IMG/VR virus record: IMGVR_UViG_2718218129_000002
Length of the DNA stretch: 52,782 nt
Source: a virus
Taxonomy: Duplodnaviria; Heunggongvirae; Uroviricota; Caudoviricetes
Direction: 5' to 3' (one strand)
Positions 11,377-25,672 of this stretch are shown here, in pieces. A program made the translations under genes and the position numbers. The notes under the pieces are model-generated. The model saw nothing but the letters and a program-made list of their open reading frames with translations, searched no databases and was not told the origin of the DNA. Positions within the stretch are counted from its first letter, which is position 1. Every line of letters starts with the position of its first letter.

Positions 11377-11714
11377 CAGATCACCACTTCGTCAAACTGA
11401 CACGAAAAATCGGTATAGGTGATATGTTCTGTCGCTGACCACGTTCGACACACCACTCTGATTTTTCTGTTAATACCCGGCGGGCGCCAAAAAAAAGATT
11501 TATAGCCTTCATGCCGGGCTAAAAATTTTTCAAATGAATCACGTTCATTCGCCTCAACTTTGAAATCACAGGTGAAAACGCGCAGAGAATGATTAAGTCC
11601 ATTTGGACTTCGTTGCTCATAACCATCGCCAAATCTTACAGTTTTTATCGATGGTTTATTTTCTGTTTTCATTCCATCCTCTGGTAACCAGTGAAATTCT
11701 TCCGTATTAGCCAC
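11376..11714 (-). CDS. minor tail protein M-like
   Basis: 112 aa; [12 protein letters not shown] motif similar to lambda M; sits between tape measure and L. Confidence 0.7.
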
Positions 11715-14700
11715 TTAACATTCCCCCATCACGTCGCATATTTAACAGATTGCCCTGCACCCGCTGATCAACCATCCCCATAAGTGCTTTTATTGCCTGA
11801 GGGCCAATCTCTCCATTCTGGCCGTCATTTTGAATAGTGATTTGGTATACAGGGGCATAGGTAATATCTCCGCCTCCATTACCACTTTTACTATTAATAG
11901 CTCTGACACCAAGAGAACCATCGGAAGTTCGTGTTAATGGCATAATGGCTTCCGGTCCAGCCTCACCAAAAACACCAGCCCCTCTTGCAAAAGCAAAAAA
12001 TTGCGGGGAATCATAAATACCGTTCGAATACGTGTTCAATGACGGAGACTCATAAACACCGCCCTTTGCATTCGGAATAAATTTACTAATAGCACTCCCG
12101 ATAGTTCCTAAAATCCCCCCAGAAGAACTGTTACTAATGCTGTCGAAAATCCCAGTAATTGAAGCCTTTAATGCTATTCGACTAAGATCCGAAATCACGG
12201 AAGTAGCGAAAGAACGAAAATTTGCCTTGCCTGTCGTGACAAAATCACCCAGCGCATCGGTCATTCCATCAAACATCTGAGTCGTGGTTGATTTTATCTG
12301 CTCACTGATATCCTTAGTGTCATCCAGCCAGTTATTGAATCCCTGGGAGGCACCACTAACCCAGTCTCCTGCCTGAATATCGAGCTGCTCGTTTTTCTGT
12401 CTGACAATTTCTTTTTCTCGTTCCAGAGCATCATTCAGAGCCTGCATTTTCTCCTGAAAAACATGATTTGACATCCCACGGGATTTATCTGCATAGTCAC
12501 GTTCAAGTTGCAGACGCTGATTGTTATATCCATGTTCAATCCGCAGTAATTCCTGCTGGCGTTGCTGATTTTTATCGCCAACCCCATAACCAGCAATCTG
12601 AATATCATACCCCTGCTGACGATTATCAATCGAAGCCTGCAATGAATCACGCCATGCTGTTATTTCTGCGGATTCCTTGATTAGCCTGTTATTCTTTTCA
12701 ATCGCAACATTTTTCTCCATCAACGCGGTTATTTCTTCCCGGTGTAAGAGAAGCGATTTCTGATCCTGGGTTAATTTCGATGATGGTCGTGACTCTAGGT
12801 CGGCAATCCGCTGACGCCACTTAACCAGTTCCTGTTCAGAGGAACTTAATTTAACGGTCAACTCAGCTTGTGAACTTAGTAACGCATTCTGTTGATTCAG
12901 ATGATCAATCATTCGTTGGGCTGCATCATCAGAATAACCTTTCGCCTTTGGTTGCTTTGGATCTTTATAACGCTCATTTATTTGAGCGATAAGATTATTA
13001 TATTCTTCCTTTGAATACTGATTCTTTAGCTTTTCCAGTTTTGCAAGTTCACTAGCTCTCTGCTGCTCCCGGGTCTGATATTGTTTTGAAAAGGCATCTG
13101 CTCTCTGTCTGAGTTCAATTCCTTCCTGTTGTCGCTTGTTGTAATCGTTTATTGATGAATTTAGTACGTCCTGAGCAATTTTTTCTGCTTGAAGTACGCC
13201 CAATTGCTGCTTTAATCGTGCCAGCCTTTTATTTTGAGCTCCGCCATCTCCAATGCCACCTAACCCGAAAACTCCGGGTCGGGTATTTTTTTCTATTTCA
13301 TCAATTTGACGGAGAACATCTGAGATTTTTTGATCAAGGGAGGCCTCACGGCCAATATCCAGCATGGAATCCCATGCCCATTTTGCGGAGTCTGCGACAG
13401 CTTTCCATGCAGTCTCAAGATAACCAAGATTTTCTTTAATCTGGTTGGTGCGCTGGATCATTGAGGATGAGTATTCTTCTGTCGCAATGCGGGCGGCCTC
13501 CTGCTGGTTCCCTTCATCCTGTAGCGCCTTAATCTGGTTATAAGTCGCAAGTGTCAGAAAATGGTACTGATCATTAAGTTTTGATATGGCACTGACAGGA
13601 TCCTTTGCAATTTCATTGAAGTCATTAACCAGTTGTTCGGTTGATATTCCTGTTACTTCGCTCGTTTTTACTATCGCTGTCGTCACTTGCTCCAGCGAAC
13701 TGCTCGCTACCTTTCCCGAACGCACAAGCTGATTTAATACTGCCGCCGCAGCACCAGTTGTCGAATCAGCCGCATTCCCGGCACGTTGAGCTATATCGCC
13801 CAATTGCCCGCTGGTTGTCCCCAACTGATTTCCGGTAAGAATAAGAGATTTATTAAATTCGTCCTGCTCCTGAGAGCCTTTATAGTAAGCCAGTCCTAAG
13901 ACCCCAACGGCTGCTGCGGCCAGGGTAAAAGGATTAATTAATCCCAGCACATAAGAACCTACACCTTTGATCGCCGGGCCAATCCCACCGAACATATCTT
14001 TTAGCTGGCCGCCCTGCTGCATTAACACCATAAATGGCGACTGACCAGTGGACAACCCAACAACAATATCCGTCATTTGTGCAGGCAACATGCGCATAGC
14101 AAAAGCCGTTTGTTTTGCCGACATTCCGGTTTTGCTTAATTGTGATTGAGTAACCTCAAGCTCACTCCGCATAGCACGAAGTTTTCCAGAAAGCTCCTCA
14201 TACATTTCAGGAGAAAGCATCCCCTTAGCTTTTGCTTCATTGAGCTGTTTCTGTTGTTCTACCAGACGATTAAAAGCAGTTCCGACAGGATCAAGTTGAG
14301 CAATCAGACGTTGCAAAGCAACAACCTGTTCATCATGCGCTTTTGCTGCTTCTCGCTCTGCCTGAGCCTCTCCGGTAAGCTCTCGCCGTGTTTCCTGTAT
14401 TTTTCGGCTATAATTCTCAAACTGAGAACCATTTATTTTCCCGGATGCAAACGCAGCATTAAGTTCATCATGCTGTTGTTCAAGATTTCTTAGCGCCGCA
14501 GCCAGAGGGTCGATCTTGTCCAGCATTCTTTGAAAGGCCTGAGCCTGCGCTTCCTGCTGGGCGGCAGCAAGTTTTCCGGCCTTCTCGGCTTCTCTCTGCG
14601 CTTGCGCAACCCCGCTCAATTCCTCTGTGGTTTCATTAAGTTTACGGACAAGAAATTCATATTCTTCTTTATCAATAAGCCCTTTATCGAAAAATTTCTT

Positions 14701-14940
14701 TAATTCAGAATAGCGTCGACCGACAGTATCAATTGCGGCACCAACTGGATCAATAGCTGCTTTTAATTTTGCGAGCGCGTTCTTCTCATCTTCTGTTGCC
14801 TTAGTCACTTTCCCTGCGCTATTTGCAGCAGTTTCCCCAGCCTGCGTCATTTTGACTAATGAGGAGGTCAGATTGTCAGCATTATTTTTCGCTCCAGTGC
14901 TATCAATAATTATTGCGAGACGCGAGGTTTGCTCTGCCAT
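11707..14940 (-). CDS. tail tape measure protein
   Basis: 1077 aa; coiled-coil-rich N-terminus, Gly-rich transmembrane-like centre; follows G/T; Rac tmpR is a remnant of this gene. Confidence 0.85.
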
Positions 14941-15105
14941 TTATTAAAACTCCTGACAACAAAAAACCCACCGCGAAGTGGGTTTCAGGCGACATAATAG
15001 TAGATATAGCGATTACGAGGCCACGCAATGCTTTTCTCCAGGAGCATCATCGATTTAATTAAAGACACCATCACATCTCTGTAATAGAGTGTACGTAATT
15101 AACAA

Positions 15106-15875
15106 CTACACACACTGCTCCTGAAAATACTGGTCATCCAGTGCAAAGATCACTGCTTCAAATTCATCGCGCTCAATCAATACCGGATGAGTGGCTAAAT
15201 ATTCATTTATCTCTGTCAGAGATAAAGGCAAAGGCACCCCAGCCATTCCAGCATAACGTCGGGCACGGGATATTACCGAATAGGCGTACAACAACTCCTT
15301 AAGCACCGGGTCTATTTCTGGTTCCGGTATCGGTGGCAACCTGAGTTTTTCTCGCTTCCATCTTGCCTTTTCCCCCCTTTCTCCCCCGAACTCCGATAAC
15401 CACCGCTGGGCAGCTATGGCTTTTTTATCGTATCCTGCTTCTGCTGCTCTTTACCCTGGGCGATGCTGGCTGCTTCTGCAAGGATCTGCCAGTACAACTC
15501 TGGATTCTGCTTAAGCAGCGCGATCCCTCGTTCTGCCGTATATTCCAGTGCAACCTCAACACCATTAACCAGTTCACCAACCCCTTTCCAGTCTTTCAGC
15601 AGATAACGAGCGGCATTATCAATGAGTAAATCATCAACAGAATCCACCTCGGAAACCTTTGAAATATCAAACTCCTTCGTTCCGACGTGCAAACTGGCAT
15701 CCATTTTCTCAATGTGGCGACGGATTAATGCATTACGGGAGCGATACTGATCGTTATCGCTGCTTGCCACCAACAGTTTTAACCCGTCTACAGGTTTTAA
15801 GTCCTTCATTGGCGTAAACCAGCGTTCTCCACCAATGATAATTTTCTGATTAAGAATAAACATCCATAACCTCAT
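15106..15875 (-). CDS. tail assembly chaperone GT fusion, made by programmed -1 frameshift
   Basis: The -1 frame stays open from the slippery site at the G 3' end through the 15106..15339 ORF; frame arithmetic checked by hand. Confidence 0.6.
15414..15875 (-). CDS. tail assembly chaperone G-like
   Basis: 153 aa ORF between major tail protein and tape measure; ends ...DTIKKP with A AAA AAG heptamer just before the stop. Confidence 0.6.
   Translation of the reverse strand: MRLWMFILNQKIIIGGERWFTPMKDLKPVDGLKLLVASSDNDQYRSRNALIRRHIEKMDASLHVGTKEFDISKVSEVDSVDDLLIDNAARYLLKDWKGVGELVNGVEVALEYTAERGIALLKQNPELYWQILAEAASIAQGKEQQKQDTIKKP
15420..15426 (-). other. slippery heptamer A AAA AAG for the G/GT -1 frameshift
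   Basis: Minus-strand sequence GAT ACG ATA AAA AAG CCA TAG read directly. Confidence 0.55.
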
Positions 15876-15923: not shown

Positions 15924-16886
15924 TCAACTAATCGCCTCAGCACTGGCTTTTGCGATCACGGCAGCCGGGGAATTTTTTTTTCTGGTTATCGTAGGTGCTT
16001 CATCTGCTGCGGTAATGCTCAATTGAACCTGGATAATGTCGCTATTACCCCCATCAGGCCATTCACCTGACACCTGAACCTTCGGGAAACTGAAAGTGTA
16101 TGCCCCCTCTCCATTCGAAAGCGTGAAGCTGAACGGAACTGTTTCTCCAGTCAGTGTTTTACTCCAGATTTCCCACGCGGCTTTAGACCATGAAAGCGTC
16201 ACCGTACCGGACGGTGTAAAAGTAGTCGGAATATTTGCTCCTGCATAAGGCGAGCCAGTCCCGATACAACGCTGTGTCTGGAGTTTGTTATCGAACTGAA
16301 TATCAAAACTGTCGATACAAAAACCGTTACCTCCGGCAACACCATTCAGGCTTACTGCTGAAACCTCCTTAAACGAATAACGTAGCTTTCCTGCACTATC
16401 CACAGGTTCGCCTTTGATAAAATTCGTATCATCGGCCTTTGATTCCCAGTCCAGTCCGGCAAAGGTTACGGTCGCTGTAATATCGCCGTCGTTAGGGATC
16501 TGCATTTTCCATGAGCCAACCTGCGCTCCTCTGACGACAGAGGCAATTCCGACATCGGACGCATAGGTCGCCAGAGAAAATGTTATTCGCTCATTCCCCA
16601 TTGTCAGAGAATCGCCTGACCATTCCGCGCCGAAACAGGATGCAAGAAAATCATCATGTTGACCCCAGCGAAATTTGGTACCAACATCACCGCCGACATC
16701 CACAGTGCCAGGCGTCGCCCCCTGAGCCATCCGGGAGCCACCAATCTCATTATTTTCGCCTTTATTCTGGGTGGGTTTTACTCCCCAGCTTGTGCGTTTT
16801 AATAAACTCCAGTCACCACTTGCTGGCGTAGTGCCTGCAACCGTCTCCCGGATAAATGCCGAGATAACCTTTGCACCTGAACTCAC
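15924..16886 (-). CDS. major tail protein (V-like, with C-terminal extension)
   Basis: 320 aa ORF directly upstream of G/T, the position of the major tail subunit. Confidence 0.65.
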   Translation of the reverse strand: MSSGAKVISAFIRETVAGTTPASGDWSLLKRTSWGVKPTQNKGENNEIGGSRMAQGATPGTVDVGGDVGTKFRWGQHDDFLASCFGAEWSGDSLTMGNERITFSLATYASDVGIASVVRGAQVGSWKMQIPNDGDITATVTFAGLDWESKADDTNFIKGEPVDSAGKLRYSFKEVSAVSLNGVAGGNGFCIDSFDIQFDNKLQTQRCIGTGSPYAGANIPTTFTPSGTVTLSWSKAAWEIWSKTLTGETVPFSFTLSNGEGAYTFSFPKVQVSGEWPDGGNSDIIQVQLSITAADEAPTITRKKNSPAAVIAKASAEAIS

Positions 16887-23295: not shown

Positions 23296-24606
23296 TTAAA
23301 TCCGAAGTGATGTGACTCTTCCGGTCGGTTTGACAATAGGGAATTGCTTAACGATGAAATAACCTCCGGCATCATTCGGGTGATCATTGCCAGATTTTTT
23401 ATCAGGCTCCCCCTTATCATCCCAGACCTGTTGCTCCAGAGATTCGGCATATACCGGACAACGCTTCACATTAACTTTATAGCGACGCTCACCATTGGCA
23501 TTGCAGAACATTGCATTCATTGAGTTAACGCGATCTTTTACTGGCGGGTTCGAGCTGTTCACCACAACGTTAAAACCTGCCTGCTTAAGCTGGGCTATAT
23601 CCGTCGTACTTGCGTTACTTGATTTTCTGGAATCTCCGGAAGCATCTGGATAAATATAAATCTCCCTCACTTTCCGGTAATCATGCCCGTCATACAGCCA
23701 GAAGCGTTCTTTAATGAGGCGGATCATATCCGGCGTATCGTAGGCATTGATGATTTCAGTTACCGCACATGGAAGCCCCAAACGCAGCACATGGACGATT
23801 CCCGCCATCTTTCCAACGTTAAAATCCATCCCAATATAAATCGGCTCCCCTGGCTGCTCCACTTCTTCGCAATTATTCAGTTTCCGGTCAAACTGATGGT
23901 AAACAGTACCACTTGTCAGGTTAGTAAACTGTCCTCGAAGATAGGCTTTAATCAGCTCTGGAGGGTATGATTCAAGAAGCGAAGGAATGTAATCTGCTGG
24001 CAGGTTCTTTTCATTATCGAAAGTAGATGCCTGCACCAGACCATACAGTGAGGCCAGCTCTGTTTTTTCACGCACGGCTTTAACAAACTGCTCGTAGACA
24101 AATTTGAATCCTTCCGGCGTGGTTGTAACGTCAATACCGTTGCGAAGTCCATCAATCTTATAACGCATACGTGCAATTATCTTGCGCCACGCCGTTCTGG
24201 CTTTTTCCTTCGGCAAAATGTCCAGTTCATCCACCAACGCATTACCAATTTTGAAACCGACGATCGTTTGTGGCTTCTCCATCGATCTGCAGATAGTGGT
24301 TCCCCGATACTGGCGTCCGTAATAAAAGTGAACCTCTTTATTTCCCTCATTAATTTTTACGTTCAATCCCCAGTCAGCAGCAACTTCTTCCACTGTAGGG
24401 TAAAAAATATCGCGAATTTGGGGATACGTTGGCGCAAAATATCCCTGATTTATACCTGGATGCTCCCAAATCCCCTTGCATATGCCGCCACACCCAACCC
24501 ATGTTTTGCCCGAGCCAAAACCAGCAATATAGGCTTTAAATTTATGGGGCATTGAAAGAAATCGCGCCTGAGGCACATTAAGCGTCGGAGAGATCATCTT
24601 CATCAC
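23296..24606 (-). CDS. terminase large subunit
   Basis: 436 aa; Walker A GFGSGKT near the N-terminus; overlaps the TerS stop. Confidence 0.9.
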   Translation of the reverse strand: MMKMISPTLNVPQARFLSMPHKFKAYIAGFGSGKTWVGCGGICKGIWEHPGINQGYFAPTYPQIRDIFYPTVEEVAADWGLNVKINEGNKEVHFYYGRQYRGTTICRSMEKPQTIVGFKIGNALVDELDILPKEKARTAWRKIIARMRYKIDGLRNGIDVTTTPEGFKFVYEQFVKAVREKTELASLYGLVQASTFDNEKNLPADYIPSLLESYPPELIKAYLRGQFTNLTSGTVYHQFDRKLNNCEEVEQPGEPIYIGMDFNVGKMAGIVHVLRLGLPCAVTEIINAYDTPDMIRLIKERFWLYDGHDYRKVREIYIYPDASGDSRKSSNASTTDIAQLKQAGFNVVVNSSNPPVKDRVNSMNAMFCNANGERRYKVNVKRCPVYAESLEQQVWDDKGEPDKKSGNDHPNDAGGYFIVKQFPIVKPTGRVTSLRI

Positions 24607-25672
24607 TCCTTACTCTGGCATCAACCACATTAATATTGATCGCCACAGGCTGGGGATGTTCATTATCTTCCACCGTTTCGATCTCTTTGCGCAGCTTCTG
24701 GTTTTCCATTCTGCGCCGTTCAATTTCCAGTTCCTGTAGCCGTTTATCTGCACATAAAGCCCCGCCAGCAGAAAACAAACGCAACAATTCACGCCGGGCG
24801 GCAGCCTTATCCTCCAGCAGGATCTCAACGCCGAATTTTCCGAATTTTGCCCCTGCATATAATTGCCGCGCATCCCCATCAAGCAGAGTGGTATCAGCCA
24901 TATAAAGCTGTCCCGTTCCCTCACCGCAGCACTTCGGGCAGTCCGGATTGGGTATGGCGTTATCAACAAAGCCGAGGCCTCCATATTCCGGTTCGGGTTT
25001 GCCATCTCTGGAAGCCTGCGCCGCTGCCTTGTCGAATTCTGCTATATCGCGCCACTGGTAGAGATGATTCTCGCCCCAGCAATAACGGCAGTTAACACGG
25101 CGAAATTGTGCAAGCTGATTGGGGTCGGCTAGGACAATAGCCATCAACTGACTCACTAGTAAATCCAGGTCTGCGGTATAGCGTTTCTGGTACTGATTGC
25201 GGAAGTAGCTGATAGCGCGAAAAACCCTGGCATTTCTAAGCATACGACTGGCGTTGCTGTTAGCTGTCGCACCTTGCCCCTCATAACCGGCTAGTCGGTA
25301 CGCCTCTGTCGGCTTTTTACCCTGAGCAACAAGCATCGCAAACTTAGCCTGCTGGTCAGAAATGCCGAATTCATCGGGACAGAACGAAAATTCCTCCGCG
25401 TCGCCCTCATTCAGGCCCGCATCGAATACTGGCTTTTTTTCCTGAGATTTTTCGTTCCGCTTTTGTGCAGTCTGCGCAGATTTTTTCTGCGCACTTTTTT
25501 GCGCAGTTTTGCACATTTCTGTCTGCGCATTTTTCGGAGTTTTTTTGATGTAACGACGGGCTGTTGCGTAATTCAGTCCCCTTGCTTCACACCATGCCAC
25601 CGGAGATATACCGGAGCGGGTGTATTCAGCAATATACTCCTGCTGCAACGCCCCCCAGTCCGGTCTGCTCAT
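24578..25672 (-). CDS. terminase small subunit
   Basis: 364 aa; N-terminal HTH-like segment; directly upstream of TerL. Confidence 0.7.
   Translation of the reverse strand: MSRPDWGALQQEYIAEYTRSGISPVAWCEARGLNYATARRYIKKTPKNAQTEMCKTAQKSAQKKSAQTAQKRNEKSQEKKPVFDAGLNEGDAEEFSFCPDEFGISDQQAKFAMLVAQGKKPTEAYRLAGYEGQGATANSNASRMLRNARVFRAISYFRNQYQKRYTADLDLLVSQLMAIVLADPNQLAQFRRVNCRYCWGENHLYQWRDIAEFDKAAAQASRDGKPEPEYGGLGFVDNAIPNPDCPKCCGEGTGQLYMADTTLLDGDARQLYAGAKFGKFGVEILLEDKAAARRELLRLFSAGGALCADKRLQELEIERRRMENQKLRKEIETVEDNEHPQPVAININVVDARVRSDEDDLSDA

Follow-up and report, generated by a model that had tools for sequence, protein, structure and literature searches.

In the long-tailed phages, the frameshift that gives the tail assembly chaperones G and GT is described as conserved (Xu et al. 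2004, as cited in PMC5009743), and the -1 frameshift of lambda gpG/gpGT has been treated in a series of papers (Levin, Hendrix & Casjens 1993; Xu, Hendrix & Duda 2004, 2013, 2014; as cited in PMC5009743), with the role of lambda G/GT reviewed in PMC5009743. A G/GT pair is recognised in this class by synteny together with two overlapping frames (Xu et al. 2004). We have read the lambda site directly, and it is GCG GGA AAG.

For the heptamer A_AAA_AAG, a tail assembly chaperone has been described in E. coli prophages as well. Sharma et al. (2014) list a prophage cluster A_AAA_AAG_25 with ECs1801, labelled 'tail assembly chaperone [true]' and equated with GeneTack cluster #10, in which the motif lies at codon 124 of 124 and the -1 product has 226 aa (PMC4066793). 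In Antonov et al. (2013), 41 genes form an HK97-like cluster of 'phage tail assembly chaperone', and frameshifting of 6-7% was measured for two of its members (PMC3711429); we take this to be the ECs1801 cluster of Sharma et al. In the E. coli O157 Sakai prophage Sp9 (L002 20360..20376), we have read ECs1801 as ...GCC AGA AAA AAG TAG with a -1 extension of 101 codons. ECs1801 is 63% identical to HK97 gp13, and the two heptamers differ at the same place, AGA AAA AAG in Sp9 and CGG GAA AAG in HK97 (L114 830..859), where gp13 carries an annotated -1 join over the site G_GAA_AAG. The same heptamer, in the same kind of gene and the same host, was thus already documented, and turnover around A_AAG occurs there too. 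That is, the HK97/ECs1801 family, which is unrelated to the one analysed here, shows heptamer exchange independently.

The dnaX gene of E. coli (tau/gamma) shifts on the same heptamer at about 50%, helped by an internal SD that lies 10 nt before it and a strong hairpin after it, and gives a shorter product (PMC3711429). In E. coli reporters, the heptamers V_VVA_AAG (V = C, A or G) are the three most efficient ones and A_AAG is the best tetramer, with about 0.3% frameshifting in the absence of stimulators and up to about 3.7% in a favourable 3' context (Sharma et al. 2014, PMC4066793).

The window, i.e., the whole stretch of 52,782 nucleotides of viral DNA analysed in this work (IMG/VR record IMGVR_UViG_2718218129_000002), carries two overlapping reading frames between its tail tube and tape measure genes. 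We consider it highly probable that they encode the tail assembly chaperone pair of a Rac-like prophage, with GT made by a -1 ribosomal shift. The features concerned are the following:

15924..16886, minus strand: tail tube (major tail) protein gene, the upstream neighbour (Pfam Phage_tube_2, E=9e-32; phrog_290)
15414..15863, minus strand: G-like tail assembly chaperone ORF of the YdaY family, 149 aa from ATG 15863 (ORF list, translation, phrog_313)
15420..15426, minus strand: slippery heptamer A_AAA_AAG, phased as X_XXY_YYZ in the 0 frame and separated from the G stop TAG by a single codon (CCA)
15106..15420, minus strand: T extension of 104 codons in the -1 frame, starting with GCC at 15420..15418 and closed by TAG at 15108..15106 (translation, phrog_1189)
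15106..15863, minus strand: whole coding region of the putative GT fusion, 252 aa after the -1 shift (phrog_313, end-to-end alignment with relatives)
14963..15074, minus strand: 29-aa ORF at 14985..15074 (MMVSLIKSMMLLEKSIAWPRNRYIYYYVA) and a terminator-like hairpin at 14986..14963, directly after the ORF
11707..14940, minus strand: tape measure protein gene, the downstream neighbour, 1077 aa (Pfam TMP_2 1e-81, Tape_meas_lam_C, TMP_4)

A preliminary description of this DNA had given the end of the G-like ORF as GAT ACG ATA AAA AAG CCA TAG, and the minus strand indeed reads ...CAG GAT ACG ATA AAA AAG CCA TAG, with the TAG at 15416..15414. It had also held that a -1 slip on A AAA AAG leads into a frame without stops, through a 77-aa ORF down to position 15106. 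Translation of 15426..15106 bears this out, since the frame reads KKAIAAQRW...QEQCV* with no internal stop; read as AAA AAA GCC... from 15426, it gives KKAIAAQRWLSEFGG...FQEQCV. The 77-aa ORF, which begins with TTG and occupies 15106..15339, is contained in the T extension. The G and T frames overlap by 34 nt, with A_AAA_AAG in phase. Under the local base composition, an open -1 frame of 104 codons has a P of about 0.002. In addition, the string AAAAAAG occurs 24 times in the window, and only the copy at 15426..15420 lies in phase at the end of a long ORF, no more than 3 codons from the stop, and is followed by over 100 open codons in the -1 frame. A chance origin of the open -1 frame is excluded.

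The longest form of the G ORF begins at ATG 15875 and has 153 aa. We prefer ATG 15863 (MFILNQK..., 149 aa) as the likely true start, because the homologues begin with MLII... or MFVI... and align with MFILNQK, and because phage SPF_0923 is annotated from the same Met. The fusion is 252 aa long from 15863 and 256 aa from 15875, as compared with 149 and 153 aa for G. The gain is therefore about 103 residues, somewhat less than the 107 or so that had been proposed.

At the protein level, G alone matches phrog_313 'tail assembly chaperone' with E=4e-46 over profile positions 13-149 of 258. The GT fusion matches the same profile with E=6e-51 and a higher score than G alone, covering positions 13-246 of 258 in a single stretch. 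As this match runs across the GT junction, the PHROG profile already contains fused members. T alone matches phrog_1189 with E=1e-36. G is the protein named YdaY in RefSeq, and all its homologues are marked by the precomputed Pfam family PF27119. The Pfam family PF23812 (Phage_TAC_18) scores 20.6 bits with T alone and 18 bits with the fusion, below the gathering threshold of 27 bits, so neither counts as a member; in the reconstructed fusions of relatives, Pfam gave nothing consistent, and Phage_TAC_18 matched no other family member. The NCBIfam search matched no model, and a profile search of the PDB sequences returned no match. An AF2 model of G built on a 26-sequence alignment reaches a pLDDT of 48.9, which is too poor for judging a chaperone fold.

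The pair had been placed between the major tail protein and the tape measure protein, and the gene order agrees: G and T are flanked by the Phage_tube_2 gene at 15924..16886 on one side and by the tape measure gene at 11707..14940 on the other. Genes for the tail terminator and the neck are found further upstream of the tail tube gene, and genes like lambda M, L, K, I and J follow the tape measure gene. The gap of 165 nt from the GT stop to the tape measure start houses the 29-aa ORF and the hairpin, which belong to the context and lie outside the frameshift signal.

The 29-aa ORF at 14985..15074 has no Pfam match, and it may be a moron. In HK97, the same slot before the tape measure gene holds the gp15 moron and an annotated terminator, and in the relatives of the window the slot carries other cargo, such as a membrane protein, a DUF4760 protein and further ORFs. 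A terminator-like hairpin directly upstream of the tape measure gene is also found in Sakai Sp9 (L002 20690..20716), whose tail module is unrelated. A terminator-like element before a long tape measure gene is therefore common to the three tail modules of the window, Sakai Sp9 and HK97.

Compared with lambda, the locus shows the same order of tail tube, G, T and tape measure genes, a -1 shift near the 3' end of G, an extension of about 100 aa, a slip that would involve tRNA-Lys on AAG, and no conserved stimulatory structure that we could find. It differs in having A_AAA_AAG instead of G_GGA_AAG, in the G stop, which lies 1 codon past the site here and 5 in lambda, and in the 165 nt that separate T from the tape measure gene, in place of the overlap of T and H in lambda. 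By sequence, G and T show no similarity that we could detect to lambda G and T (hhalign with the family profile: probability 0.1%, E about 0.6), nor to HK97 gp13. Missing similarity to lambda G/T, HK97 gp13 and the PDB is usual in this fast-evolving class of chaperones.

The ECs1801/ECs1802 pair (HK97 gp13/gp14-like) resembles the locus in being an E. coli prophage chaperone with A_AAA_AAG at the end of G, about 100 aa added by the -1 frame and a terminator-like hairpin ahead of the tape measure gene. By sequence it belongs to a different protein family (BLASTP E=1.0 and 0.1), and its stop follows the heptamer immediately, unlike that of G in the window. A real homologue is found in Acinetobacter phage vB_AbaS_TRS1 (TRS1_18/TRS1_19), which falls in the same PHROG-level family with a T part of 39% identity. 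There, the annotated -1 joined CDS ends exactly at the end of the reconstructed fusion, and the shift-site Lys occupies the same alignment column, although TRS1 uses G_GGA_AAG and has its 0-frame stop 78 nt past the heptamer.

For the comparative analysis, we have gathered 10 phage loci, 18 genome loci from 12 Enterobacterales genera, and 80 viral contigs; in tblastn of the fusion against phage genomes, matches in two pieces, i.e., in two frames, appeared in Klebsiella, Erwinia, Pseudomonas and Acinetobacter phages. Both parts are detectable in 105 related loci, and T lies in the -1 frame throughout, apart from 3 assembly artefacts. These three (L029, L031, L032) would give in-frame or +1 'fusions', and they were rejected as natural variants since they come from draft-assembly homopolymer indels or N characters. 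The heptamer A_AAA_AAG is present in 91 of the surveyed loci.

The surveyed loci were collapsed to 23 distinct site contexts, with three Acinetobacter phages counted separately. The -1 offset of T holds in 23/23 contexts and in the three Acinetobacter phages, and so does AAG as the A-site codon of the slip site. The heptamer itself varies: it is A_AAA_AAG in 13/23 contexts (Escherichia, Shigella, Citrobacter, Klebsiella phages, Siccibacter, Dryocola), G_GGA_AAG in 6/23 (Raoultella, Serratia, Pantoea, Tatumella), G_GAA_AAG in 2/23 (Pseudomonas phages), G_GGG_AAG in one (Pectobacterium) and C_GCA_AAG in one (Erwinia phage), and the three Acinetobacter phages have G_GGA_AAG. When 7 members from the enteric, Pseudomonas and Acinetobacter groups are aligned, only 14 columns are invariant, and the shift-site Lys is among them. 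The 0-frame stop is found 0, 3, 21, 60, 75, 78-87 or 105 nt downstream of the site. Since the position of the stop varies while AAG stays, the conserved element is the slip site, not the stop.

The -1 frame is conserved as protein from its first codon (A[ILV]EAQKWLxEFGGExGEKAKWRREKLxLPPIPEPEID), and the 0 frame of the same region is riddled with stops. In the first 38 codons past the slip, the differences from the window number 142, 114 and 340 at the first, second and third positions of the -1-frame codons, and this third-position bias is the signature of coding sequence from the slip site on. Along its whole length, the fusion can also be aligned with the fusions reconstructed for relatives.

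These data bear directly on whether G and T might be separate genes, with T translated from its own start, either as 77 aa from TTG 15339 or in a shorter form behind the AAGGAG at about 15300. Annotation pipelines (PGAP, GenBank) do call an own T ORF, and in the window AAGGAG stands just before a TTG TTG at about 15292. Against this, the 27 codons from the slip site to the first possible start are kept as protein across genera with the third-position bias, the annotated T starts vary between records, and both the -1 offset and the heptamer persist while the 0-frame stop changes place. Actually, the first potential T-frame start that lies at the same position in 16/16 sequences is codon 58, and two relatives (L030 and L099) have no ATG, GTG or TTG before this codon. 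We thus regard independent initiation of T as very improbable.

A decayed prophage gene would be another way to arrive at two frames, i.e., a frameshift mutation would have broken a once continuous gene that has no function any more. Rac-type prophages are often cryptic, K-12 keeps only an N-terminally truncated ydaY, and deletion derivatives exist (P0009, P0016). The same two-frame layout, on the other hand, is found in isolated phages (SPF_0923 and Klebsiella, Erwinia, Pseudomonas and Acinetobacter phages) and in many genera, and both frames are under purifying selection, which makes decay the least credible of the explanations, with next to no weight in our assessment.

With a functional T extension, the remaining matter is the step at which the frame changes. 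For E. coli RNA polymerase, slippage is generally efficient only on runs of about 8-9 A or T. The heptamer holds six consecutive A, and if the polymerase added one A in this run, the identical protein ...IKKAIAA... would result, so that protein sequence alone cannot separate the two mechanisms. Homologues with a run of only three or four A (G_GGA_AAG, C_GCA_AAG, G_GAA_AAG), however, keep A_AAG in the correct phase, and the phase of the motif, which is conserved, matters to ribosomes but not to the polymerase. Slippage during transcription is accordingly a doubtful explanation, to which we assign only a very small probability, and the comparative sequence evidence strongly supports a programmed -1 shift at this site.

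Overall, the locus shows what is expected of the G/GT class, namely two ORFs between the tube and tape measure genes, a -1 overlap with a slippery site, and a T that is under selection as coding sequence from the slip on and has no conserved signal for its own initiation. The G/GT-type arrangement proposed at first thus stands, on the basis of synteny, the PHROG matches, the joined CDS of TRS1, and the -1 geometry, AAG and post-slip peptide shared across the family.

By the ribosomal mechanism, most ribosomes would make G (YdaY, 149 aa), ending at the TAG one codon past the heptamer. A minority would shift with AAA in the P site and AAG in the A site: the two tRNA-Lys would move back one base onto AAA AAA, and reading would resume at GCC in the -1 frame. 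The predicted product is the 252-aa G-T fusion, in which ...DTIKK is followed directly by AIAAQRWLSEFGG... In this step the A-site tRNA-Lys would re-pair from AAG to AAA, and A_AAG is the feature that stays invariant. On the model of lambda gpG/gpGT, the tape measure protein may be coated by G and by the G part of GT, while the T part may recruit the tail tube protein, and a fixed low frequency of shifting would set the G:GT ratio.

We have looked for elements that might stimulate the shift. A hairpin predicted right 3' of the window heptamer does not surpass shuffled sequence (z = +0.6 and -0.2) and is absent in relatives; single-sequence folds downstream of the site in six family members and relatives do not surpass it either (z -0.2 to +0.8); and 16 aligned sites folded with RNAalifold have a consensus of -2.7 kcal/mol with no supported helix. 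A conserved internal SD was also considered and rejected: AGGA lies 6 nt upstream of the site in the window and in some relatives and is absent in others, and it is explained by Gln-Glu/Asp codons.

Of the label 'dnaX type' in the preliminary description, one part holds and the other does not. The heptamer A_AAA_AAG is identical to that of dnaX, and the tandem slip of tRNA-Lys(mnm5s2UUU) is presumably the same; the upstream SD and the downstream hairpin of dnaX are not present here in conserved form, and the shift product is longer rather than shorter, so the locus does not amount to a dnaX-type cassette. As there is no conserved stimulatory structure, the frameshift efficiency is not predictable from the site itself. 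By extrapolation from the reporter data (0.3-3.7%) and the 6-7% of the ECs1801 cluster, the native efficiency would probably range from a fraction of one percent up to a few percent.

The preliminary description had set A_AAA_AAG against the heptamer of lambda in a way that implied novelty. This is not supported: V_VVA_AAG is the top efficiency class, so A_AAA_AAG and lambda G_GGA_AAG form one functional class, both are found at the identical position within the present family, and A_AAA_AAG had already been catalogued for ECs1801. Judging from the aligned sites, 'dnaX-type' versus 'lambda-type' amounts to ordinary turnover around an A_AAG core (GTA AAA AAG to GTG GGA AAG and back). The site is thus an ordinary, unannotated member of a well-known class, and its difference from lambda is neither functionally surprising nor new. 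It is conceivable that the exchange of heptamers at a fixed position is not neutral turnover but an adaptive tuning of the G:GT ratio to host translation or tail length, though we consider this unlikely. As a weaker variant of the tuning reading, the intact site in the truncated K-12 ydaY might still yield a YdaY-T fusion from the cryptic Rac prophage.

In Pectobacterium odoriferum (L023), the site with G_GGG_AAG reads GTG GGG AAG TCG, and a -1 shift would put the A-site tRNA-Lys on GAA, which is non-cognate. This slip site would be either weakened or reliant on P-site slippage.

The host element is a Rac-like siphovirus prophage of E. coli. A region of 1.2 kb is 100% identical to an E. coli chromosome, the locus is present in 1074/5426 complete E. 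coli genomes (about a fifth), and it also occurs in phage SPF_0923 and in prophage-derived vB_EcoS records. The cryptic Rac prophage of E. coli K-12 has its N-terminally truncated ydaY beside ynaA, a remnant of the tape measure gene. Deletion variants exist in nature. P0009 (240 aa, E. coli NB16F79) has lost about 12 codons upstream of the heptamer, with G fused into the T frame (...ILAEAGYDKKAIAAQ...); as the deletion joins G directly to T, a GT-like protein is all that this prophage can make. In P0016 and P0013, deletions have fused terminase or other genes to ydaY.

None of the records inspected annotates ribosomal slippage at this locus. In RefSeq and GenBank it appears as 'YdaY' and a 'hypothetical protein', and the truncated G start that goes back to the K-12 remnant is frequent. 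In E. coli EC21Z-014 (L113 1828..2495), RefSeq/PGAP calls the intact G a 119-aa 'protein YdaY' and T a 77-aa hypothetical protein; the 119-aa call uses an internal start inherited from the truncated Rac copy of K-12 (MG1655, L112 1493..1852). A catalogue of K-12 genes containing A_AAA_AAG is reportedly found in Gurvich et al. 2003 (EMBO J), and outside that work our literature search for ydaY and frameshifting found no relevant account. The main value of the present case is therefore in annotation, where YdaY would become tail assembly chaperone G, the 'hypothetical' ORF its T part, and a slippage join could be added. This would give YdaY a function and remove a spurious hypothetical ORF, and our understanding of frameshifting or tail assembly is unchanged by it. 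In addition, the family offers a natural series of slip-site variants at one homologous position, which is usable to calibrate frameshift predictors and could serve to compare heptamer efficiencies in their native context.

A second in-phase A_AAA_AAG is found in the window within the gene of the terminase small subunit (Terminase_2, ORF 24578..25672, minus strand), at 25433..25439 in the context CAG GAA AAA AAG CCA. It lies at about codon 79 and is probably incidental, since a -1 shift there would run for only 8 codons before a stop, for a product of about 88 aa.
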